Assembly (NCBI RefSeq): GCF_963975635.1
Contig: NZ_CAXBIE010000014.1
DNA length: 64,000 nt
Direction: 5' to 3' (one strand)
DNA from: an uncultured Hoeflea sp.
Lineage (GTDB): Bacteria; Pseudomonadota; Alphaproteobacteria; Rhizobiales; Rhizobiaceae
Translations under genes and position numbers: made by a program
The notes under the pieces: generated by a model
The model's input: the letters and a program-made list of their open reading frames with translations, nothing else
The model's database searches: none
Told to the model about the DNA's origin: nothing
Part shown: piece after piece, positions 33,287 to 46,076 of the stretch
How the letters are laid out: every line of letters starts with the position of its first letter
Position numbering within the stretch: position 1 is the first letter of the stretch

Positions 33287-34492
33287 ATGAGCCAGGACAT
33301 GCATTTTGATCTGGTTATCCTTGGTATTCTCGTTGCCTTCATTGTCTATTCGCTTCTCACCCGCGCCGTTGACAGGTCACTGCTGACGCTGCCGATCATC
33401 TTCATGTGCCTGGGCTACGGGCTGTCGGAGCCATTGCGCAACGCCGCGCCGCCCGAAATTCTGAACGAAGGCAAACGGTTGCTTGCGGAAGTCACGCTGG
33501 TGCTGGTGCTGTTTTCCGATGCCTCGCATGTACAGTTCTCGCAGCTCAAGCAAAGCTGGCGGCTGCCGGCCCGGATGCTGCTGATCGGCCTGCCATTGTC
33601 CATTGCGCTGGGCATGCTGGTGACCTGGCTGATCAGCCCGGAGGGCGGTCTTGCCATGGCGTTGCTGACCGCCGCCGTGCTGACGCCGACGGACGCGGCG
33701 CTGGGCCAGAACGTTGTTACCAGCGCAAATGTGCCCGAGAAGCTCAGTGAAACGATCAATGTCGAAAGCGGGCTCAATGACGGGCTGGTGCTGCCCTTCG
33801 TGCTGCTGGGCGCGATCCTGGCCTCTGCGGGAATGGCGGATGCCAATACCGGCGGGCTGGCACTCAAGGCGGTGCTGCAGATCGTGCTTGGGCCACTGGC
33901 AGGCATTGCCACCGGCTGGGTGGTGGCGCGGCTGATGGATGTGGCGCAGGCACGCCGGCTGATTGCCGCATCGGCGGAAGGCGTGGTGTTTCTGGCCGCC
34001 AGCTTTGCAGCCTATGTTCTGGCGGGTGCAATCGGCGGCAATGGCTTCATCGCGGCCTTCGTCGCCGGCATGATCTTCGGCAACAGCTACAAGCACAATA
34101 TCCGGTTTGTCCGCGAATTCATGGAAGGCGCCGGATTGCTTCTGACCATGTCGTCCTTCCTGGTGTTCGGCGCGTTGCTGCTGCCTGACGGGCTGGCGCA
34201 TGCCTCGATCAAGACGGTGGTGATCGCGGTGATGTTTCTCACGGTGGTGCGGGTGGGGGCGATCTGGCTGTCGCTGACCGGGTCGGGCCTCAAGACCAGC
34301 GAGAAGCTGTTTCTGGGCTGGTTCGGACCGCGCGGGCTGGCCTCGATCCTGTTCACGCTGGTGATCATCGACGAGTTCGAGTTTCCCAACGAAGCCGAAC
34401 TGCTGGCTTGCGTGTCGATGACCGTGGCGCTGTCGATCCTGGTCCACGGACTGAGCTCAACACCGCTGGCCAGATGGATCGGCAAGCGGTGA
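33287..34492 (+). CDS. cation:proton antiporter (CPA1/NhaP-like)
   Basis: About 12 TMs, LTPTDAALG, VESGLNDG, GWFGPRGLAS. Confidence 0.92.
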   Translation: MSQDMHFDLVILGILVAFIVYSLLTRAVDRSLLTLPIIFMCLGYGLSEPLRNAAPPEILNEGKRLLAEVTLVLVLFSDASHVQFSQLKQSWRLPARMLLIGLPLSIALGMLVTWLISPEGGLAMALLTAAVLTPTDAALGQNVVTSANVPEKLSETINVESGLNDGLVLPFVLLGAILASAGMADANTGGLALKAVLQIVLGPLAGIATGWVVARLMDVAQARRLIAASAEGVVFLAASFAAYVLAGAIGGNGFIAAFVAGMIFGNSYKHNIRFVREFMEGAGLLLTMSSFLVFGALLLPDGLAHASIKTVVIAVMFLTVVRVGAIWLSLTGSGLKTSEKLFLGWFGPRGLASILFTLVIIDEFEFPNEAELLACVSMTVALSILVHGLSSTPLARWIGKR

Positions 34493-34553
34493 AGCGCGGT
34501 TTGATTTACAGTCGAAATGCAAATGTGTTATTTCAAATAAAGAGGGGATCTAT

Positions 34554-35102
34554 ATGGAAGATTTTTTATGTAGTGCAAAAGCATCTATTTGTGCGCTGGA
34601 TATAGCCATTAAATATGCCGAGAAGCAGATGGGTTGGTACAGTTTTTCTGGTTTATCAAAATTTTTATTGTACAGAATATCTGGTTTGTTCGCTATATTT
34701 TCAACGCTTTTCGTCGCTTACCTTTCTGCGTCCCTATCTGAGAAGGAAGGTGAGTTTTTGGGATATAAAAGAAGTAATCTTATTTCCATATTTTCATTCT
34801 CTGCGGCAATTTCTATCTCTCTCTCCAGCTTTTTCGCTTGGGATTCATCGTGGAAAAGTCATAGAATTGCGCAGTTTGAACTTGAGTCCACTTTAAATGC
34901 TACAAAGATTGAAAGATATCGATTGCTGGAAGAGGAGAATGATGAAGAGCTCTTCAAGCTCGCGGAGAAGCTCTCCAGAGATGTTGGCGACATCGTTCTG
35001 AAGGAGAGTGAACTCTTTTTCAACGGCCTGAAATCAGCCCAAAATTCGGTAGGGTCGGGAATAAACCCGCCGTCTGGTACCGTTGGACAAGACTCAGATT
35101 GA
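34554..35102 (+). CDS. SLATT/DUF4231-like two-TM protein, low GC
   Basis: Helix, two TMs, then WDSSWKSHRIAQFELE motif and charged helical tail; AT-rich (17/60 G+C on line 34741). Confidence 0.65.
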   Translation: MEDFLCSAKASICALDIAIKYAEKQMGWYSFSGLSKFLLYRISGLFAIFSTLFVAYLSASLSEKEGEFLGYKRSNLISIFSFSAAISISLSSFFAWDSSWKSHRIAQFELESTLNATKIERYRLLEEENDEELFKLAEKLSRDVGDIVLKESELFFNGLKSAQNSVGSGINPPSGTVGQDSD

Positions 35103-35440: not shown

Positions 35441-36190
35441 CTACCGGCAATCGAGCGGGCGGATTTCGCCCACTTCTATTGTTGCTCCGTGATCATCAGT
35501 GGCCAGAAACCGCGGCTGTGCGCCGCCATCAAAAACACCGCATGTCAGATGACCCGAATGGACCGCACCGGTGTCCAGAGCGATTCGGTTGGTATGCAGC
35601 TCGGGCAGGGATGACGCGGTCATGGTGTGGCCGTGGACAATGATCTTGGGCAGCGGGGCCTTGTAGTCGAGGAAGCTGTCGCGGATCCAGCGTGTGGTTA
35701 CCGGGTCCTGCTCGCCGAGCGGCAGATGCGGATCGATGCCGCCATGGACGAAGCAGTAACGGTCCGTCTCCGCCATCCAGCCGGCATTGCGCAGGGCTGC
35801 GATGTGGCCGGGATTGTCTCTGCCCAGTTGTTCGGCAATCGCGTCAAGCTCCCCGGTGTCCGCAAATCGGTAGGAGTGCAGCGTTTCGCTGCCGCCATTG
35901 GGGAACCAGCGGCGGGCTGCTGTTTCGCGGGCTTGCGGCGAAGCAGCATCCAGGAAGGTCAGCATGAACTCCTCGTGGTTGCCGAGAATCAGACGGGAGT
36001 CCGACTGTGATTGAAGCGTGCCGATCACCAGGTCGAGGCATTGCCGGCTTTCCGGCCCGCGGTCGATGATGTCGCCAAGAAAGACGATGCGGTGTTTCTG
36101 GCCGCCGGAGTCCTTGCTGATGGCACTGAGCAAGGCAGCCAGCAGGTCGCGCCGGCCGTGAACATCGCCGATGGCATAGGTCAGTGTCAT
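35441..36190 (-). CDS. PPP-family metallophosphoesterase (Ser/Thr phosphatase-like)
   Basis: GDVHG, GDIIDRG, GNHE, FVHGG, VHGHT, DTGA. Confidence 0.92.
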   Translation of the reverse strand: MTLTYAIGDVHGRRDLLAALLSAISKDSGGQKHRIVFLGDIIDRGPESRQCLDLVIGTLQSQSDSRLILGNHEEFMLTFLDAASPQARETAARRWFPNGGSETLHSYRFADTGELDAIAEQLGRDNPGHIAALRNAGWMAETDRYCFVHGGIDPHLPLGEQDPVTTRWIRDSFLDYKAPLPKIIVHGHTMTASSLPELHTNRIALDTGAVHSGHLTCGVFDGGAQPRFLATDDHGATIEVGEIRPLDCR

Positions 36191-36499
36191 GGGGAGTCCT
36201 CATGGGTGGTATCGGATGATATGGCAGCGGCGCGAGACAATTAAGGCACAACCGGTGCGATGGCTGCAATCCCTTATGCAAAACCAAGGGCTTGGCTGCA
36301 ATGCGTTGCCCCCACAGGCGGCAAAAGGCCCGGCTGGCAGGCCGGTTCATGCTGTCAGCGGCCGGGTGCTGAGCAAAAGTCTTTGCCAAAACCGCCCATC
36401 AGGGTTGAAAAAAAGCCGTTTGAGCGGCACATAGCAGTTGGATCGCCGCATCTGGCGGCCTGCCGACCGGCATAGATCCCAAACCAGGATGAATTTCGT

Positions 36500-36877
36500 T
36501 TGAAAAAGCAAGTACGCACCGCCTTCACCGACCGCCGTCAGGATGCCATGGAAGCCAAGAAGAAGCTTCTGGAGAAAATGAAGGCGGCACCGAAGGCGGA
36601 TGACCCGGAAATGATCGCCAAGCGCGCCGAACGCGCTGCTGTGGCCAAGGCCCGCGAAGAACGCCATGCCGAACGCGCCCGGTTGAAGCTCGAAGAGCAG
36701 GAACGCAAGGCAGCGCAGGACGCCGCCGATGCGGCAGCAGCCTATGAAGCCGCCCATGCCGAGGAAATCGCCCGCGAAGCGGACGAAAAGGCCCGTGCTG
36801 ACCGTGCCGTGGCCGACATGGCCGCGATGAAGGAAAAACGCGATCAACGTTATGCGGCGCGCAAGGCACGCCGCTAG
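36500..36877 (+). CDS. DUF6481-like helical small protein
   Basis: AKKKLLEKMKAAPKADDP...RDQRYAARKARR pattern; TTG start. Confidence 0.75.
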   Translation: MKKQVRTAFTDRRQDAMEAKKKLLEKMKAAPKADDPEMIAKRAERAAVAKAREERHAERARLKLEEQERKAAQDAADAAAAYEAAHAEEIAREADEKARADRAVADMAAMKEKRDQRYAARKARR

Positions 36878-37142
36878 ATCGTTTCATCGCTGGATCAGTC
36901 CGGACTCTGTTCGGCAAGCGGCAGATGGCGCAGCTCGGTGAGCTGCGCGTCCACTCCCGGCAGGCCAAATATCCGCGCGTGACACTGTCACCGGCGGCTT
37001 GAGGCTTGTCGATTTTTCCGGCCCCGGGCCGGAATGCGGGGCGCGCGCGGCGTGCCCGAATGGATACATGGGTGTGGCTTTGGCCCGTAGTTTGGCCGCG
37101 CAGATACACAGTGCCTGCAAAGCTGGCCAAACCACTTAAGTG

Positions 37143-37190
37143 GTGCATGTACGTTTCGCCCGATTGCAAACAATCGGGTGCGACATGCAC
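37143..37190. repeat. half copy of the RIME-like element
   Basis: GTGCATGT...CCCGATTG-CAAA-CAATCGGG...ACATGCAC hairpin with the same ends as the element's GCATGT hairpin. Confidence 0.6.
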
Positions 37191-37279
37191 GCGCGGCACC
37201 CCGCCGGTGTCGGACCCGTTGCCTTCCGGGCGCCGGGGAAGTCCGGGACAGATCACGATCACGCGCTGCGGACGATTCG

Positions 37280-37387
37280 CTACAGCGCCGCGCATCCAAT
37301 TGGATGCGCAAAGGTCGCTGTAACACTTTGAAATGATGCATGTACGTTATCGTTCAAATGAATACATCTGAACGCGACATGCATTGG
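37280..37387 (+). repeat. RIME-like palindromic intergenic element, copy 2
   Basis: CTACAGCGCCGCGCATCCAATTGGATGCGCAAAGGTCGCTGTAACACTTTGAAATGATGCATGT...ACATGCAT; inverted near-identical copy at 6428-6531. Confidence 0.85.
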
Positions 37388-38104
37388 TGTTCAGCGGCCC
37401 GCGCCGCCGAACCCGTCCTGCCCGAATGCCTTCAGACCTTGCGGCCATTTGGCATGCGGGCCTGCCGGGCGCCGACACGGGTCAGCGCGTCTTCCGGCAC
37501 CGGCATGGCTGCTTCCTGCTTCGACGCGCGGTCGGAGGCAGGGCCGCGCCGGGATGTCGCTCCTCTGTCCCTCCGGCCGGCGCGGTTCGGCTCCGCGCGG
37601 ACCGGATCGACCGTCCTTCGCCGCTCCGGGGTCCGTCGTCCCGAAACATCCGATCTGGCGAAGGCGGAACCAGCCTCGCATGGATGGCTGGCATGTGGAA
37701 AAGATCGCGGCGGATTCTGCGCAAGTGCCTGGGATTGTTGGCGGCGGGGGCCGGGTTTGTGCACGGCTTGCGTCAGATTTTGGACTCGGGCCGACCCCCT
37801 CACCAACAAAATCTGCGACTTAGCTGAAGCCAAGACCGCGATTTTGTATCCTCTCCCACCAAGGGGCGAGGAGAGGGTGCCGCGGTTTCCGCGATTCGGC
37901 CTCTGCTCGTTGCGGGTGACGAAGCAATTTCAGTATCTTAGCGCAAGCCAAGTGCTTGGAATTGCAGGTGAGGGGCGGCGGCAGTTGTCCGGCACACTCT
38001 CTCTCCGTCGTCATCCCAGGCCTCCGAGCCGAGGATCCATTCCGTGATGTTATTTAAGCTCACCAGAGGAGTGCTGCCCCACCGGTTGATGGGGCAGCTT
38101 GCTG

Positions 38105-38263
38105 TTATCGGCGAGAGGGTTCTCCTTTAGTGTCGCCCCTGCCAGGCTTGGGTATTCTCTCAACCGTCGTCGTTTTCGGCCGTCTTTCTGCTTCCTTCAC
38201 GGGAATAAATTTTCCGGAACCTGAATCGCGACCAACGTCAAATGTTTTGCGTTCTTTCGGCAT
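38105..38263 (-). CDS. 52-aa basic micro-protein absent from the ORF track
   Basis: Translated by hand: MPKERKTFDVGRDSGSGKFIPVKEAERRPKTTTVERIPKPGRGDTKGEPSRR; RBS GAGGT 5 nt upstream; GRD..SGKFIPVKEA.RRP.TTTVE pattern recalled from a widespread small-protein family. Confidence 0.8.
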   Translation of the reverse strand: MPKERKTFDVGRDSGSGKFIPVKEAERRPKTTTVERIPKPGRGDTKGEPSRR

Positions 38264-38341
38264 ATCTTACCTCAGTCTTCTTGGGAGGATTTCACAATGC
38301 ATGCGGACCTTCAATTGAAGATCCGCATGTCATGTTTTATG

Positions 38342-38548
38342 TTACTGCGTGTGGCAGGGCAGGCTGCAGAATTTACAACCGTTAACTTGGCTGTAGTACT
38401 TCTTGGCCGCTGTCACTGCTGGTGCACATGTTGTGAACTCACCGAGATAGATCCTGTTCGAATCCGCCGGTATGAAATTGCACCCAGTCGTGTGCACTTC
38501 ATGATCGCCGCTGGATTGAGCATTCTTATTGACGTAGTATGAGGACAT
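38342..38548 (-). CDS. 68-aa Cys/His-rich hypothetical protein
   Basis: RBS AAGGAG; YYVNKNAQ..GDHEVH...C...NGCKFC..CHT pattern; hairpin CATGCGGACCTTC-AATT-GAAGATCCGCATG just downstream. Confidence 0.85.
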   Translation of the reverse strand: MSSYYVNKNAQSSGDHEVHTTGCNFIPADSNRIYLGEFTTCAPAVTAAKKYYSQVNGCKFCSLPCHTQ

Positions 38549-38783
38549 GATTCACGCTCCTTTCTCCCGCATCACTTTGACGCAAACCTCTCCTGAAGCT
38601 TGACATCCGTTGATCGAAAGAACAGCATGTCCATGCTTAGCAAAGCACATGAACGCAAGGGCGGCGGGTCCGCCTTGGCTGTTCCGAGGGCAGTACGATT
38701 AGCGTCGTGCTGCCCTTCTTTGTTACTGTCGTTGACCAACTAGTTTGGGTCAATGACAATCGCTCGTTTCGCCGTCTTGATGC

Positions 38784-38950
38784 TTATCCACAGGGGGCAT
38801 TGACGAATCGTCTGGTTACGTGCATTAAGAGAATTGACCACTAAATCACGGTCACTGCAAATACTCACCCACTATATGTTGTGTTATCTTGCGCGCAAAT
38901 GCTTTTTTCGCATTTGCTGTGGATAATTGTTTATCCACAGGTTATCCACT
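38784..38950. promoter_or_regulatory. DnaA-box cluster
   Basis: TTATCCACA 38784-38792, TGTGGATAA 38918-38926, TTATCCACA 38931-38939, TTATCCACT 38942-38950. Confidence 0.8.
38838..38884 (-). promoter_or_regulatory. tandem NrdR boxes over a leftward sigma70 promoter
   Basis: CCACTATATGTTGTGT (38869-38884) and weaker CCACTAAATCACGGTC (38838-38853), starts 31 bp apart; minus strand reads TTGCGC-N16-TATAGT with the -10 inside the strong box. Confidence 0.65.
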
Positions 38951-39009
38951 GTTTACAAACTGTGGTTTTACAATCCCGTTTTCGTGTTTCCGATATGTTC
39001 CGTTTATGA

Positions 39010-39033
39010 TTCTTGGGGCCGAAGCCCCAAGAA
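39010..39033 (-). terminator. nrdJ terminator hairpin
   Basis: TTCTTGGGGC-CGAA-GCCCCAAGAA perfect 10-bp stem 24 nt past the nrdJ stop. Confidence 0.8.
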
Positions 39034-39057
39034 TATTGCTTGTGTAGAAACCTATCC

Positions 39058-42000
39058 TCAGCTGCACCCACTCGTGCTTCCGCAGGTGTCGCACTTTTCG
39101 CATGTCCCATTCCGTACCATCGTAAAATTCTGGCATTCGGTGCACATGTTGCCGGTGTAGCCCTGCATGATCGACTTGACGCGGCGGTCGGCCTCGAGCC
39201 GCTTGGCGCTCGCGGCGGTGTCGGCGGCCTCGTCGGAAAACAGGGTTTCCTCGATCGCGATCTCGGCGGCCAGCTCCTCGGCGCGTTCCTCGTAGTCGCG
39301 CTTGAAGGCAACGGCCGTGTCTTCGGAGGCGATGGCTTCGGGGGCGGACTTGACCGCCAGATTGCCGGTCGACTTGCTGGTTGAGGTCTTGGACGAGAAC
39401 GAAGCGGTGATCACCGAAGAAGAGCCGGTGCCAGAGCCGGTGGTTGGGGTGGTCTTGGCAGGTGCCGGAGCGTCGGCCTGGCCTTTCGGTTCAGCCGTGC
39501 CGCTGGTGCCGGTGACTACCTTGAGCGATGCGCCGCGGGTCAGGCCCTTGGAGAAAGGCTGCGCCTTGCCCTCGGAAATGCCCTTGCCGAGCGCGGTGTT
39601 GCCGAAGTCGGAGGTGTCGACATGGGCCAGGTCATTGCGCGCCAGATAGGAGACGGCCAGCTCGCGGAAGATGTAATCCAGGATCGAGGTGGCGTTCTTG
39701 ATGGCGTCGTTGCCCTGCACCATGCCGGCAGGCTCGAACTTGGTGAAGGTGAACGCCTCGACATATTCCTCCAGCGGCACGCCATATTGCAGGCCGAGCG
39801 AGATGGCGATGGCGAAGTTGTTCATCATGGCCCGGAAGGCAGCGCCTTCCTTGTGCATGTCGATGAAGATCTCGCCGATGCGGCCGTCGTCGAATTCGCC
39901 GGTGCGCAAATACACCTTGTGACCGCCGATGACGGCTTTCTGGGTGTAGCCCTTGCGGCGGTTGGGCAGCTTTTCGCGGTCGCGGTAAAGCCGTTCGACC
40001 ACCCGCTCGACGATCTTCTCGGTGACGGTGACGGCCTGGGCGGCGGCGGGCTGAGCCACCAGCGCCTCGATGGCGTCATCCTCGTCCTCGTCATCCTCGA
40101 TCAGCGAGGCGTTGAGCGGCTGGCTGAGCTTGGAGCCGTCGCGGTAGAGCGCGTTGGCCTTCAATGCCAGCTTCCAGGACAGCATGTAGGCGTTCTTGCA
40201 ATCATCAACGGTGGCGTCGTTGGCCATGTTGATGGTTTTCGAGATCGCGCCGGAGATGAACGGCTGGGCCGCGGCCATCATGCGGATGTGGCTTTCGACC
40301 GACAGATAGCGCTTGCCGACCTTGCCGCACGGATTGGCGCAATCGAACACCGGATAGTGCTCGACCTTGAGATGCGGTGCGCCTTCCAGCGTCATGGCGC
40401 CGCAAACATGGATGTTGGCGGCTTCAATGTCCTTCTTGGAGAAGCCGATGGCCGAGAGCAGGTCGAACGAGAAATCATTCATCTGCTCGTCGGTGAAGCC
40501 GAGCACGTCCTTGCAGAAGGCTTCGCCAAGGGTCCACTTGTTGAAGACGAACTTGATGTCGAAGGCGGCCTTGGTGGCGCCGTTGATGGCGTCAATCTGG
40601 GTGTCGGTGAAGCCCTTGGCCTTGAGCGAGCCGGGGTTGACGGCCGGGGCCTGGTTGATGTTGCCGTGACCGACCGCATAGGCTTCGATCTCGGCCAGCT
40701 GGGCCTCGGAATAGCCCAGCGTGCGCAGCGCCTCGGGCACCGCGTTGTTGATGATCTTGAAGTAGCCGCCGCCGGCGAGCTTCTTGAACTTGACCAGCGC
40801 GAAATCAGGCTCGATGCCGGTGGTGTCGCAGTCCATCACCAGACCGATGGTGCCGGTGGGCGCAATCACGGTGGCCTGGGCGTTGCGGAAGCCGTGCTTC
40901 TCGCCGAGCTTCAGCGCCTTGTCCCAGGCAGCGGTTGCATGGGTGATCAGGTCGGGATCCGGGCAGTCCTCATGGATCAGCGCCACCGGGTTGACCGACA
41001 GCTCTTCGTAGCCGGTCATCTCGCCATGGGCTGCGCGGCGGTGGTTGCGGATCACCCGCAGCATGTTCTTCTTGTTGTCCTTGTAACCGGCGAATGTGCC
41101 GATCTCGCCGGCCATCTCGGCCGAAGTGGCATAGGCCACGCCGGTCATGATCGCGGTCAGCGCGCCGCAGATGGCGCGGCCTTCCTTGGAATCATAGGGA
41201 ATGCCGGTGGTCATCAGCAGGCCGCCGATATTGGCAAAGCCCAGGCCGAGCGTGCGGTACTTGTAGCTCAGTTCGGCAATCTGGTGCGAGGGGAACTGCG
41301 CCATCATCACCGAGACTTCCAGCACGATGGTCCAGAGCCGGACGGCATGCTCGTAATCGGCGATATTGATGCGCTTGGTGTCCTTGTCCTTGAAGCGCAG
41401 CAGGTTGAGCGAAGCAAGGTTGCAGGCCGTGTCGTCAAGGAACATGTATTCCGAGCACGGGTTGGACGCGCGGATCGGACCGGCGGCAGGGCAGGTGTGC
41501 CAGTCGTTCATCGTGGTGTTGTAGTGCAGGCCCGGATCGGCCGACGCCCAGGCCGCGTGGCCGATGGTTTCCCAAAGGTCGCGGGCTTTCAGCGTCTTCA
41601 TCACCTTGCCGTCCTTGCGGGCGGTCAGGTTCCAGTCGCCGTCCGCTTCAACGGCCTGCAGGAAGTCGTCCTTGATCGAGACCGAGTTGTTGGAGTTCTG
41701 GCCCGAAACCGTCAGATAGGCTTCCGAATCCCAATCGGTGTCGTAGGTCTTGAATTCGATGTCGGTGTAGCCCTGGCGGGCAAACTGAATGACGCGCTTG
41801 ACGTAGTTTTCAGGCACCTGGTCCTTCTTGGCGGCCTTGATCTCGCGCTTGAGGGCAGGGTTCTGCTTGGGGTCGAAGCAGGCGTCGTTGTCAGCCTCGC
41901 AGTTGATGCAGGACTTCATGATCGCGGAGAGGTGCATGGACACGATCTTCGAGCCGGTGACCAGGGCCGCGACCTTCTGCTCTTCCTTGACCTTCCAGTT

Positions 42001-42882
42001 GATGTATTCCTCGATATCGGGGTGATCGATGTCGACAACGACCATCTTGGCGGCACGGCGGGTGGTACCGCCCGACTTGATGGCGCCGGCAGCGCGGTCA
42101 CCGATCTTGAGGAAGCTCATCAGGCCCGACGATTTGCCGCCGCCCGAAAGCTTTTCACCTGCGCCGCGCAGATGCGAGAAGTTGGAGCCGGTGCCGGAGC
42201 CATATTTGAACAGGCGGGCTTCGCGGACCCACAGGTCCATGATGCCGTTCTCATTGACGAGATCGTCTTCAACCGACTGGATGAAGCAGGCATGCGGCTG
42301 CGGATGCTCGTAGGAGGATTTCGATTTGGTCAGCTTGCCGGTGAACGGGTCGACATAGAAGTGGCCCTGGCCGGGACCGTCGATGCCGTAGGCCCAGTGC
42401 AGACCGGTGTTGAACCACTGCGGGGAATTGGGGGCAACGCGCTGGGTGGCGAGCATGTAGGCCTGCTCGTCCATAAAGGCGCGGGCGTCTTCTTCGGTGG
42501 TGAAATAGCCACCCTTCCAGCCCCAGTAGGTCCAGGTGCCGGCGAGCCGGTCGAAGACCTGGCGGGCGTCGGTTTCCGAGCCATAGCGCTCGTCTTCGGG
42601 AAGCTCTGCAAGGGCTGCCTCGTCAGCAACCGAGCGCCACAGCCATGACGGCACGGAATTTTCTTCGACCTTTTTCAGATGCGCGGGAACGCCGGCCTTG
42701 CGGAAATATTTCTGCGCCAGAATGTCGGCTGCGACCTGGCTGAACTGCACCGGCACATCGATGTCCGCGAGGCGGAAGACGACCGAACCGTCGGGGTTCT
42801 TGATCTCGCTGGTGGCTTTGCGGAATTCGATTTCTGCATAGGCTGACTGGCCGTCTTTGGTGAACCGACGTTCGATGCGCAT
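39058..42882 (-). CDS. nrdJ: vitamin B12-dependent (class II) ribonucleotide reductase
   Basis: [47 protein letters not shown]-terminal CTEC...CDTC; no intein signature seen. Confidence 0.97.
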
Positions 42883-43013
42883 TTTAGTCCTCTTTATAAA
42901 TCAAAAGCCGATCGCATTCCTTGCGTCACGGCAAATTCTTCCCCGCAGGCTGCTCAATCATTGCGCATCCCGTTCTGATACTCGGTCACTCGGTGTGATT
43001 CCCGTTTCAGGAA

Positions 43014-43060
43014 ATCCTCTATCTTGTGGCAAGATTGGCTGCAAACACTAAATATAGTAT
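43014..43060 (-). promoter_or_regulatory. tandem NrdR boxes upstream of nrdJ
   Basis: ATCCTCTATCTTGTGG (43014-43029) and ACACTAAATATAGTAT (43045-43060), starts 31 bp apart. Confidence 0.75.
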
Positions 43061-43288
43061 TAACAAGAGATTTACGCCAGTCCCCGTTGGCAGGTCGCCG
43101 ACATTTTTTTGCATCAAAGCATGCCCCTCGAACCGCCGTGAATGTCACGGGGAAAGATGCTGTGAACCGAAAAATGTCGGGATTTGACTGGCCTCTTAAC
43201 ATCCCAGCCGCGCCGCCGCCGCAACGTGTTTCCTATAAGCATCGACTCGGGCGTATGCGTCAAGAGGTTGTCGGTGGCAGATTATTGC

Positions 43289-43321
43289 ACACCATATCTA
43301 GTGGAGGAGCACTGTGGAAAA
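43289..43321 (-). promoter_or_regulatory. distal NrdR box plus DnaA box upstream of nrdJ
   Basis: ACACCATATCTAGTGG (43289-43304) and TGTGGAAAA (43313-43321, reverse complement TTTTCCACA). Confidence 0.6.
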
Positions 43322-43599
43322 CGAGGACAAATCGCGAATTCGACATCCGCGCCATTGCCCGCAGATAAGCCAAGAACTTGCTGCCGGGCAAATGTCGGCT
43401 GTTGTGGGTCGACTCAATCCGGCCGGCCGTCATGTCTAATCAATGCTTTAAGTTTGGTACCGAAGCCATGCCTATACAGGGTGGGCAGTCAAGTATCGCG
43501 GCTGTCAGTCTCTCGGCCACGGGGAGGGGTCCGCATCGTTGTTCGGGGAGACCTGATGCCGGGCCGCGCCGAAACGGGCGTTGCTTCGCGGCGACGATG

Positions 43600-44100
43600 T
43601 CAGGCGGCCTTGAGCACCTGGAAGGCATCGCGAATGACCGTCTTCAACCCGTCTTCGGCCACAAGGCCGATTGCGGTGGCGACCGGAAACCATTTGCGCC
43701 GCCGCTCGTCCCGCTCCGGCCACAGATCACGCTGTTCGAGCAGCTTGAGGAGATACACATCGACTTCGCATTCGGCATCGTTGCGCCGTGTTCTTTGCTT
43801 GATGTAGTAATACCGGCCAATGGGGCCACCGGGCAGCGCTTCGCCGATCAAGCCTGCTTCTTCCCATGTTTCCCGCACGGCCGCTTCGGCTCCGTCTTCA
43901 CCTTCCTCGATCCAGCCCTTGGGGACGATCCAGCGTCCCGTGTCGCGGCTGGTGATCAACAACAATTCGCATTTGTCGCCCGAACCACGGAAAACAGCAG
44001 CCGCCGATTGCCGCTTGGGCTTCTTGCGTAACCGTCCTTGTGTCTCACCGGGGTGCCTGAACAGGTCCAGCAGCGTCTTGAGCCTGTCAAATGCGATCAT
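43600..44100 (-). CDS. NUDIX hydrolase
   Basis: LLITSRDTGRWIVPKG, Nudix box GWIEEGEDGAEAAVRETWEEAG; start uncertain (ORF track 44136). Confidence 0.9.
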   Translation of the reverse strand: MIAFDRLKTLLDLFRHPGETQGRLRKKPKRQSAAAVFRGSGDKCELLLITSRDTGRWIVPKGWIEEGEDGAEAAVRETWEEAGLIGEALPGGPIGRYYYIKQRTRRNDAECEVDVYLLKLLEQRDLWPERDERRRKWFPVATAIGLVAEDGLKTVIRDAFQVLKAA

Positions 44101-44372
44101 ATCCAACGATTCTCCCTGTTTTATTTTGTCACGCAATTGTGACGAATTTGATACACCGAATTTTCAAAGCACAATCGCTCAAGGTTGCAGATCCGAGAGT
44201 GCCGGTGCCGGTCGGGCGAGGGCCAACAAGAAACCTTGACCCGGTGTTGTCCGATCTGTCCGGCCGGCAAACAAAACGGGGACACAACAAATGCTGTGTC
44301 CCCACATAGTGCGTTAACCGGTCAGTCCAAGGCTTTTTCAAACCAGAGCGGTTTGAATGCCGCCATTCGGGA

Positions 44373-46076
44373 TCAGAATTCGTCCCATTCCTGCGCGACT
44401 GCGGCAGAGGCTCCACCGCCGCCACCGGCTTTCCGTACCGCTCTTTGTGCCGGTGCCACGGGTTTGGTGGCGGCAACGGCTGGTCTGGCCCTGGTGACCG
44501 AATGCGAGGCGTTTCGTTCATTGACGTTGAAGACGGCAAGTTTTGCCACCAGTCCATCTGCGTCGGCGGCGAGCCCAAGGATCGACTTTGTCGTATCCGC
44601 CACAAGTGCGGTGTTTTGCTGGGTTGTCTGATCCATGCTGACCACCGCCGCGTTGATTTCGGAAATGTCGGAGGCCTGTTCGCGCGATGTTTCGACAATC
44701 CTGGAGATGTACTCGTTGATGTTCTTGACCTGATCGCCAATCGCGCGGAGGGCTTCACCGGTCTGGTTGACCAGCGTCACACCACTGCTCACCTGGGACG
44801 ATGACGTCTCAATCAGAGCATTGATTTCCTTGGCAGCACTTGCAGAGCGTTGTGCCAGCTCACGGACTTCCTGGGCGACAACGGCGAATCCCTTGCCGGC
44901 CTCTCCGGCGCGGGCCGCTTCGACGCCGGCATTGAGCGCCAGCAGATTGGTCTGGAACGCGATTTCATCAATGACAGTGATGATCTGCCCGATTTGACGC
45001 GAAGAGTCCTCTATCTCCGTCATGGCGTTGACGGCCTTGGAGACAATGACTTCCGAGACGGATGCATTTTTTGTGGTCTCGTCGACCAGACGCCCGGCTT
45101 CGCTTGCGCGCTTGGAGGCTGTCTGGACGTTTTCGGTGATTCGTCCAATTGCGGCGGCGGTTTCTTCAAGCGAGACGGCCTGTTGTTCTGTCTGCTTGGA
45201 AATCCGCTCGGCGTCGGTGCAGACACTGTTGGAACTATCGCTCATCCCCCGCGCCGAGCCGCCGAGTTCTGCAACGAGCTGCTCAAGAGCTTCCATGGAT
45301 CCGTTGAAGTCGCCCCTGAGTACTTCCAGGGTGTCATCAAACCGGTCGTTGAGGCGGACGCGGAGATCGCCATCCGCCAGCTGGCGGAGGCCACCGCCAA
45401 GTGATGCCATGGCGAACTGCAGGCGTTCTGTGTCGGCTGCGCGTTCGGCTTCGCGCCGTTTCGCGTTGTCCAAATTCTCGCGTTGTGCCGCTTCGGCCTT
45501 GTGCGACATTTCGGTGGCCTGTTCATTGGCTATCTGGGTATTGCGCATTGCCTCATCGTTTTGGGCAAAGGCGCTGGCCAGCGAATGCACCAAGGCCAGC
45601 AAGGCGCCGGACTCCAGAATGAGGATGCCCGCATGCAAGACGACACGGCTGAAATCCGTATCGCCTGGAAATACCGCTGCTGGGATGACGAAGAAAAGCG
45701 CAAGATGGTGCACGGCGGTAAGGCCGGAGAACGCCAGAATTGGCCGCCAGTCGACCCAGGATGCGCAGATCGCAAGGCTGGCGAAGAAATACATGTGCAT
45801 GTCGATCTGAAGCGGCGATCCGGAAAAGGCGTAGACCAGCAAGGCCACGCTGGCCGCGTGTGCCAGGGCTGTCGAAATCTGCGTGGCCGTTCCGGTTCGG
45901 TCGCGCCACCAGGTCAGAGTTGCCACACCGGCGATTGCCGCGCCGCCACCCAGTACGATGACCGGGTCGGCCTCCATCCCCCACAGATATCGAAGCGCCA
46001 TCATGCCGAGGTTGATCCACAGCAGCGAGACGATCGCAATGGCTGCGCGGGTGCGGAGAGAGGTCATGTAATTCAT
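44373..46076 (-). CDS. methyl-accepting chemotaxis protein with multi-TM, His-rich sensor
   Basis: About 6 TMs, HAMP-like region, IAFQTNLLALNAGVEAARAGEAGKGFAVVAQEVR, C-terminal QEWDEF pentapeptide tail. Confidence 0.93.
   Translation of the reverse strand: MNYMTSLRTRAAIAIVSLLWINLGMMALRYLWGMEADPVIVLGGGAAIAGVATLTWWRDRTGTATQISTALAHAASVALLVYAFSGSPLQIDMHMYFFASLAICASWVDWRPILAFSGLTAVHHLALFFVIPAAVFPGDTDFSRVVLHAGILILESGALLALVHSLASAFAQNDEAMRNTQIANEQATEMSHKAEAAQRENLDNAKRREAERAADTERLQFAMASLGGGLRQLADGDLRVRLNDRFDDTLEVLRGDFNGSMEALEQLVAELGGSARGMSDSSNSVCTDAERISKQTEQQAVSLEETAAAIGRITENVQTASKRASEAGRLVDETTKNASVSEVIVSKAVNAMTEIEDSSRQIGQIITVIDEIAFQTNLLALNAGVEAARAGEAGKGFAVVAQEVRELAQRSASAAKEINALIETSSSQVSSGVTLVNQTGEALRAIGDQVKNINEYISRIVETSREQASDISEINAAVVSMDQTTQQNTALVADTTKSILGLAADADGLVAKLAVFNVNERNASHSVTRARPAVAATKPVAPAQRAVRKAGGGGGASAAVAQEWDEF

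Follow-up and report, generated by a model that had tools for sequence, protein, structure and literature searches.

In the nrdAB promoter of Escherichia coli, which drives a ribonucleotide reductase (RNR), DnaA boxes lie upstream and NrdR boxes lie over the promoter itself, with DnaA coupling expression to replication initiation; the same operon (nrdAB-yfaE) also carries yfaE, which encodes a small 2Fe-2S ferredoxin serving NrdB. Here we describe a predicted promoter of this architecture that has no RNR gene to drive. It lies in a 64-kb stretch of DNA from an uncultured Hoeflea sp. (contig NZ_CAXBIE010000014.1; the whole stretch is called the window below, and all coordinates are positions in it), where a unit of promoter, leader and two micro-protein genes, p68 and p52, reads on the minus strand. 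Its upstream neighbour, outside the unit itself, is the RNR gene nrdJ. The site is likely to be a working NrdR/DnaA-controlled promoter for a p68/p52 operon and, as judged by comparison of related sequences, the conserved portable unit is promoter, operator and leader and not the particular protein pair, the cargo being exchangeable between relatives.

The NrdR operator consists of two partially palindromic 16-bp boxes separated by a linker of 15-16 bp, and the highly conserved positions of a box are C4, A6, A8, T9, T11 and G13 (PMC13584703). Following these criteria, NrdR sites were scored on six key positions per box and thus 12 per tandem pair. Loaded with ATP only, NrdR forms oligomers that are unable to bind DNA, whereas tetramers loaded with deoxyadenosine triphosphate (dATP) and ATP act as repressors, binding a pair of boxes that are three helical turns apart (PMC9110341). 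A structure of the tetramer on DNA has been obtained by cryogenic electron microscopy with the nrdRJ operator of Streptomyces coelicolor (PMC9110341).

The predicted promoter, its operator and related loci

Read in the direction of the predicted transcript, the unit has the following features (a strand is given where one applies).

38942-38950: DnaA box TTATCCACT, 8/9 match
38931-38939: DnaA box, exact match to TTATCCACA
38918-38926: DnaA box, exact match to TTATCCACA, in the opposite orientation
38893-38898, minus strand: predicted -35 TTGCGC, followed by a 16-nucleotide (nt) spacer
38871-38876, minus strand: predicted -10 TATAGT, within NrdR box 1
38869-38884: predicted NrdR box 1, ACACAACATATAGTGG, 6/6 key positions, overlapping the -10
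38838-38853: predicted NrdR box 2, GACCGTGATTTAGTGG, 5/6 key positions (A6 -> T), at about +12 to +27
38784-38792: fourth DnaA box, exact TTATCCACA, inside the leader at about +75
38549-38864, minus strand: 5' leader of ~315 nt, from the predicted start to the p68 start codon
38342-38548, minus strand: p68, 68 aa, Cys/His-rich, with the Shine-Dalgarno sequence GGAG 9 nt upstream
38105-38263, minus strand: p52, 52 aa, basic, with the Shine-Dalgarno sequence GAGG 6 nt upstream

The three exact copies of TTATCCACA are the only exact ones in the whole 64 kb, and the upstream DnaA-box cluster (38918-38950) is dense, including an inverted pair 4 bp apart. Judged from the sequence, transcription would start near 38864. 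NrdR box 1 has two mismatches to the 16-mer consensus; box 2 begins 31 nt after the start of box 1, which leaves a 15-bp linker, as in both nrdJ operators, and the tandem operator as a whole (38838-38884) spans the predicted -10 and the first ~25 bases counted from the predicted start. Much of this had been proposed by an earlier, sequence-only reading of the stretch, and its promoter motif TTGCGC-N16-TATAGT, its near-consensus NrdR box over the -10 (all six key positions), its fourth DnaA box in the leader, its roughly 300-nt hairpin-rich leader and its two small open reading frames (ORFs) with good ribosome-binding sites were all borne out, both ORFs belonging to conserved families. Other points needed amendment: the three DnaA boxes that it placed upstream are two exact ones and a third that matches at only 8/9, and the 'second weaker NrdR box 31 bp on' has the spacing claimed for it and, with five key positions out of six, does not deserve to be called weak. 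Nor are the micro-proteins 'hidden', as both fall into families already called hypothetical proteins in public data.

Like E. coli nrdAB, the locus has DnaA 9-mers ahead of the -35 and a pair of 16-bp NrdR boxes, 15 bp apart, that would overlap the -10 and the start; the logic to be expected is also the same, high dATP repressing the promoter and DnaA tuning it. Unlike nrdAB, the locus has no RNR gene, its place being taken by a leader and a micro-protein cargo that varies between relatives, and there is an extra DnaA box within the transcribed leader. With the S. coelicolor nrdRJ operator the predicted site has in common partially palindromic boxes about three helical turns apart in which C4/G13 and the central AT are kept; that operator, however, belongs to an RNR operon.

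Tandem pairs scoring at least 11/12 occur three times in the window, namely here and twice upstream of nrdJ, and 100 dinucleotide-preserving shuffles gave a mean of 0.18 such pairs per window. The two nrdJ operators lie at 43014-43060 and 43258-43304, ~245 bp apart, and each scores 11/12 with a 15-bp linker, so that the operator ahead of p68, with an equal score and the same linker, matches bona fide nrdJ operators in quality. The presence of two suggests two NrdR-controlled nrdJ promoters, and the distal one is flanked by a DnaA box with one mismatch, TTTTCCACA, at 43313-43321. An origin of the p68 promoter and leader as a duplicate of the region upstream of nrdJ was considered and rejected, local alignment of the two being no better than that of shuffles.

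On the preferred reading the promoter is of the sigma-70 type and autonomous, its operator is RNR-style, and transcription of the leader and the p68-p52 operon would run leftward and end at the hairpin 38073-38098. By analogy with the published NrdR mechanism, the operon would be shut at high dATP, when NrdR is bound, and would open together with nrdJ at low deoxynucleoside triphosphate (dNTP) levels, when dATP falls and ATP-only NrdR leaves the DNA. DnaA may in addition tune the promoter to replication-initiation status, as at E. coli nrdAB.

Comparison with other genomes and metagenomes shows how much of this arrangement is kept. The best genomic relative is a Hoeflea metagenome-assembled genome (MAG), L001, whose NrdJ is 93% identical. 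A search with a 25-nt piece of the leader led to a Rhizobiaceae MAG (L003), Oricola indica (L083), a Devosia MAG (L081) and four metagenome contigs (L371, L372, L373, L375). In seven loci (the window, L001, L003, L083, L371, L373 and L375) the DnaA pattern, the motif TTGC-N16-TATnGT, both NrdR boxes and the leader are all in register. In the six relatives the upstream DnaA boxes lie at about -66, -55 and -42 from NrdR box 1; the leader DnaA box lies at +92 to +101 from it in relatives. The NrdR pair scores 12/12 in L003 and L083, 11/12 in L373 and L375, and 10/12 in L371. The key positions of both boxes, the linker length and the DnaA positions are kept between genera whose NrdJ proteins are only 70-78% identical. 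A TARA Oceans scaffold of 1990 nt (L374) was compared with the window over 850 nt, taking in the promoter, the leader, p68 and the start of p52, and does not differ from it; by this identity the organism is placed in an open-ocean metagenome.

The genes behind the leader differ from one relative to the next.

Window, L001, L373: p68 and p52
L003: p68 alone
L081, L371, L372: p52 alone
L083: a 52-aa zinc-ribbon protein
L375: a 53-aa MPPY protein

In none of the nine related loci compared does an nrd gene follow the promoter or leader; micro-protein genes are found there instead. The sequence-only reading had described a promoter without an nrd gene to drive, which this comparison upholds, the cargo being p68/p52 here and likewise free of nrd genes in the relatives. 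It had also offered, as an alternative, a relic promoter whose nrd target was replaced, and that idea fails by the test which the reading had itself named, because none of these loci has an nrd gene at this position. In L373 and L007 the DnaA/NrdR promoter is parted from nrdJ, or from the start of the contig, by a HicAB-like toxin-antitoxin pair (identified by eye), the two genes of L373 lying at 52-255 (HicA) and 257-463 (HicB) when the locus is flipped so that the cassette reads forward. This insertion shows that promoter and nrdJ can be separated.

Operators of the same type also occur outside this group. In a survey of 184 distinct p68 loci for tandem sites of at least 11/12 in the 800 nt upstream of p68, such sites were found in 11; elsewhere in the same loci there were 8 in 1.34 Mb, two of them nrdJ promoters and the rest at about the chance rate. 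A single-box test of all p68 upstream regions with the older 16-mer consensus gave 8 matches (0.15 in shuffles). DnaA boxes with at most one mismatch are likewise enriched near these operators, with 30 in 16 loci against 1.35 in shuffles, and so are exact ones (10 against 0.06 in the same 16 loci). The loci with tandem sites include Roseovarius (L013, L173), a Rhodobacteraceae MAG (L018), Hyphobacterium (L240), an AT-rich alphaproteobacterium (L027) and a gammaproteobacterium (L032). Linkers of 14 bp occur in Sinisalibacter (L080, 12/12), L030 and L172. In a Vallitaleaceae (Clostridia) MAG, L043, a DnaA box and two near-perfect NrdR boxes are followed by a leader, a 57-aa micro-protein gene (p57) and p68, and this cassette adjoins an integrase-like ORF (by eye). 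On a viral contig, L129, an exact DnaA box, a tandem NrdR site and a GUCAA-containing leader are joined by p68 and a gene for an 84-aa micro-protein. The retention of the promoter in seven loci and the recurrence of tandem NrdR sites upstream of p68 in unrelated lineages that have no nrd gene close by lend support to the earlier suggestion that micro-proteins may be under NrdR and DnaA control.

The leader RNA

The leader has a minimum free energy of -110 kcal/mol (z = -3.2) and folds better than all 100 shuffles. From 5' to 3', its parts are as follows.

38686-38717, minus strand: hairpin H0, ahead of the conserved core, with variable sequence and a covarying stem
38620-38684, minus strand: near-invariant core with a predicted three-way junction (GAACAGCCAAGGCGGACCCGCCGCCCUUGCG...GCUGUUC)
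38557-38604, minus strand: invariant GUCAAGC (38598-38604) and, 3' of it, the invariant AGUGAUGCGGGAGAAAGGAG tract, with a variable covarying hairpin between the two

Compensatory changes affect 12 of the 13 pairs of H0 (RNAalifold, 9 sequences, alignment A7), while the Rhizobiales core, being invariant, offers no covariation for its predicted fold. A conserved upstream ORF in the core was tried as an explanation and rejected, its variable positions tracking RNA pairing (G-U changes) and not codon positions. The AGUGAUGCGGGAGAAAGGAG tract contains the Shine-Dalgarno sequence GGAG (38557-38560), so that the invariant part leads into a consensus Shine-Dalgarno sequence whose distance from the next start codon is the same whichever gene comes next. 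With the Shine-Dalgarno sequence inside this invariant 3' end, gating of translation by the leader is probable and would add a post-transcriptional checkpoint to the control of the promoter. The commonest 5-mer in the leaders is GTCAA, with 19 copies in six leaders (3-5 each) at positions that are kept; among them is the invariant GAUGUCAAGC, which precedes the start codon by ~45 nt.

In being a long, conserved and structured 5' untranslated region (UTR), the leader resembles those that sequester the Shine-Dalgarno sequence, such as riboswitches and RNA thermometers. Unlike these, it matches no described family: a scan of 36000-44500 on both strands with the 4227 families of Rfam 15 gave no match at E <= 1. 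A blastn search of the PLSDB plasmids with the leader found no match, and a scan of genome contigs with the pattern GACGCCGCCAAGG-N85-115-GTCAAGC returned GC-rich chance matches, none of those listed encoding p68.

The p68 genes of Rhodobacterales and Hyphobacterium are preceded by a distinct leader of ~165 nt (L013:5841-6006, L030, L173, L205, L070, L182, L018 and L240; alignment A6). Covariation backs two hairpins in it, one of them GACGCCGCC, as well as a GAAGGUCGC/GCGGCCUUC helix in competition with one between anti-Shine-Dalgarno and Shine-Dalgarno sequence; in these helices 86% of cells are paired and 13 pairs show double changes, values reached by none of 500 shuffles. It can form mutually exclusive helices, one pairing an anti-Shine-Dalgarno with the Shine-Dalgarno sequence and the other an anti-anti-Shine-Dalgarno helix, again backed by covariation, and is a candidate for a new translational riboregulator, without a match in Rfam. 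A covariance model built from these leaders (R1) retrieves L013, L030, L173, L018, L182, L205, L070 and L240 and not 38549-38864. The model thus gives no grounds for grouping the two leader types in a single RNA family; they have in common only the short motifs GCCAAGGYGG and GUCAAGC.

With so conserved a leader, it has to be asked whether the RNA is the main product, that is, whether a regulatory small RNA (the leader, or its 5' part ending at H0) is what the promoter makes, with the micro-proteins as interchangeable passengers. We regard this as unlikely, although it survives better than the other alternatives. The leader core persists across changes of cargo and varies less than the coding sequences, the GTCAA motif recurs within each leader, the fold has the z score given above, and in L081, L372 and L371 a U-run follows H0, so that transcription could terminate there. 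The window, however, has no U-run after H0 on the leader strand, and no terminator lies between core and ORF. An invariant tract that runs into a Shine-Dalgarno sequence at a fixed distance from the start codon is moreover the signature of a 5' UTR, and p68 and p52 are both under purifying selection.

Weighing the readings of the site

Several observations count against an NrdR/DnaA-controlled promoter as the explanation of the site, or limit its reach. The -35 agrees with the E. coli consensus at only 3/6 positions and is thus weak by E. coli rules, which is why a generic E. coli-type promoter scan misses the promoter. The leader core of L081 and L372 comes after another gene and an H0 with a U-tail, and the DnaA/NrdR promoter is absent, so that the leader can work without this promoter and the two can be uncoupled. 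The invariance of the core is partly a matter of ascertainment, because the Rhizobiales leader loci were gathered with the exact 25-nt core as the search pattern. Around 94% of p68 loci have no NrdR site, and NrdR control is therefore not general to the p68 family; together with the occurrence in phages and prophages described below, this makes p68 a widespread mobile micro-protein that would be NrdR/DnaA-controlled in some lineages only. NrdR has been described as an RNR-specific repressor (PMC9110341), and in the one validated case outside the RNR genes, topA of Pseudomonas aeruginosa, NrdR activates a gene that has a single box (PMC4409342). Lastly, a regex search did not find nrdR in the window, although an active NrdR in the genome is implied by the two good NrdR operators that precede nrdJ.

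Like the genes of the window site, topA is a non-nrd gene with an NrdR box, and it has been shown to respond to NrdR; unlike topA, the window locus has a canonical tandem pair in the position of a repressor, and the products are unrelated. In the literature, nothing was found on NrdR in connection with small proteins or phage, topA being the only validated non-RNR target found.

The motifs might also be real without forming a promoter operator, for instance if the locus served DnaA titration or replication, or if the palindromes were bound by another factor or acted on the 3' end or termination of nrdJ. The dense DnaA cluster with its closely spaced inverted pair and the weak -35 would fit such a role. 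Against it stand the fixed spacing of the boxes to a conserved -35/-10 in seven loci and the same layout of DnaA boxes, NrdR boxes and micro-protein genes without a nearby nrdJ in L013, L043 and L129, and in L373 and L007 the HicAB-like pair separates nrdJ from the promoter. Cumulative GC skew climbs steadily over 30-45 kb of the window, and the locus is therefore no replication origin. This reading seems to us improbable, somewhat more so than that of an RNA product.

That the site is what remains of a promoter whose nrd gene (e.g. nrdHIEF or nrdAB) was replaced, with the boxes as decaying leftovers, is very improbable. It would explain why the architecture is that of RNR promoters, and the region after nrdJ is indeed variable in relatives and holds island-like genes (HicAB, an insertion sequence element, CBASS, Lamassu). 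Decaying leftovers, however, would hardly be compatible with key positions, linker and DnaA positions kept across genera, nor a lost nrd gene with its absence from the position in all nine related loci; the same type of operator also stands before p68 in unrelated lineages, and the site is not a duplicate of the nrdJ promoter. A chance co-occurrence of motifs beside two unrelated small genes can practically be dismissed, for even though the lower GC content of the promoter region (48-53% vs ~61% in the flanks) favours AT-rich palindromes, the shuffles yield far fewer tandem sites, single boxes and DnaA boxes than are observed, and the motif positions are conserved in seven loci.

The reading as a controlled promoter for the micro-protein operon thus stays the preferred one, and what is new in it is the exchangeable non-RNR micro-protein cargo, the recurrence across phyla and on a prophage-like contig, and a leader RNA outside the described families; the control logic itself is known from RNR promoters. 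A canonical tandem operator before non-RNR genes, kept across genera and independently recurring, would widen the NrdR regulon. The near-invariant leader, reused for different cargo and without an Rfam match, is a candidate new cis-regulatory RNA, and the position beside variable defence islands hints at dNTP status as a signal for accessory genes. A broader interpretation is possible, if doubtful: the DnaA/NrdR operator and leader may form a portable platform for sensing dNTP and replication status that swaps its cargo (p68, p52, p57, zinc-ribbon and MPPY proteins) and has spread across phyla and into prophages, p68 may be a new metal-binding factor acting on RNR, dNTP supply, replication or a phage-host conflict timed by dNTP depletion, the leader may represent a new class of riboregulator, and NrdR would then not be RNR-specific.

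The micro-proteins and the surrounding DNA

The p68 protein matches phrog_4298, a phage protein family of unknown function, over its full length by hidden Markov model (E = 5.3e-24, residues 1-67 on profile positions 1-69 of 70). It has 267 close database homologues, and relatives with 60-85% identity occur in the genomes of more than 300 species from many phyla; a profile search of 1.84 billion representatives (clustered at 50% identity) gave 1876 matches at E <= 1e-3. The family nearly always stands alone, at 66-72 residues, and the profile search for domain fusions gave only one sub-threshold GIY-YIG neighbour domain. Alignment A2 has 25 invariant columns, including H16, H19, C23, C41, C58, C61, C65 and H66, and this invariant Cys/His pattern fits metal binding. 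The AlphaFold (AF2) model is confident (predicted local distance difference test score 94), and a fold search with it against PDB and BFVD returned nothing significant (best E = 0.8-1.7). Neither p68 nor p52 matches a Pfam, NCBIfam or PADLOC family, and neither has an RNR, NrdH, NrdI or ferredoxin domain. A family so large, so conserved and structurally orphan would gain a handle for study if it were induced by dNTP or replication stress.

For p68 itself a parallel is yfaE. Like it, p68 is small and Cys-rich and comes after RNR genes, nrdJ in Rhizobiales and nrdAB in Sphingomonadales, where it lies 0.5-2.2 kb after nrdAB in five loci. Unlike yfaE, p68 matched no ferredoxin family in Pfam or NCBIfam and no known fold, would have its own promoter, and is also widespread in prophages and islands without an RNR gene. 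Our working guess, based on the invariant Cys/His pattern and on its association with RNR genes in two orders, is that p68 probably binds metal (Zn or iron-sulphur) and acts in dNTP/replication-stress physiology, or in mobile-element biology timed to it. In phage records, tblastn matches to p68 were found in 13, including Streptococcus, Staphylococcus, Erysipelothrix and Vibrio phages. In 27 prophage-like contigs (among L085-L164), a gene for a conserved protein of ~65-79 aa comes after p68 on its strand, and endolysin-, spanin- and holin-like genes (by eye) come before it, which is a typical moron position for p68.

The p52 protein has the motif RD-x3-G-x-F-x-P/T-V-x-EA-x-RRP-x-TTTVER and 121 homologues, mostly in Rhizobiaceae; most of the changes that set the window copy apart from that of L001 are synonymous and fall at third positions. 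Homologues stand after nrdJ in Rhizobium bangladeshense (L244), Neorhizobium galegae (L245) and Sinorhizobium alkalisoli (L246), directly before an HTH_31 and Peptidase_M78 pair that is followed by CBASS (a DncV-like nucleotidyltransferase and ThiF) or Lamassu (LmuB_C) genes. The same operator was looked for at these three homologues and rejected there, since they have no NrdR site, leader core or p68. The DNA that follows nrdJ has the look of a hotspot for defence islands, with p52 at its border.

Two further micro-protein families recur in these cassettes. The 57-aa basic family p57 is a recurring partner of p68 (L002, L005, L013, L018, L030, L040, L043, L065, L080), has the pattern MATNPPSGDGHR.G.V..RSQT...G.YVKRD..TGRFMDVK..PFKGVRKE and no Pfam family, and shares an RD-x-x-TG-x-F motif with p52. 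The 53-aa MPPY protein (...APIAKGN.MPPY.G..VTWKLIQ.A) stands behind the Rhizobiales leader at L375:2048-2212 (locus flipped, cassette forward), and its family is also found directly before p68 in a Bacteroidota genome (L052); its presence in both contexts points to a shared pool of co-occurring micro-proteins.

The remaining features around the unit are these.

39058-42882, minus strand: nrdJ, class II (B12-dependent) RNR, 1274 aa (Pfam Ribonuc_red_2_N, Ribonuc_red_lgC, TSCPD)
39009-39034, minus strand: hairpin 3' of the nrdJ stop codon, terminator-like, without a U-tract on the minus strand, kept in L001
38300-38329, minus strand: hairpin between p68 and p52, whose stems are kept and whose loop differs between the window and L001
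38073-38098: hairpin closing the unit, terminator-like on either strand

At 34400-35000 and 36525-38047 the window shows a sharp AT-rich patch (GC 0.43) and two ORFs, of 235 aa (plus strand) and 256 aa (minus strand), that match nothing in Pfam, NCBIfam, PHROG or PADLOC. The DNA between p52 and a Metallophos gene looks like accessory DNA.

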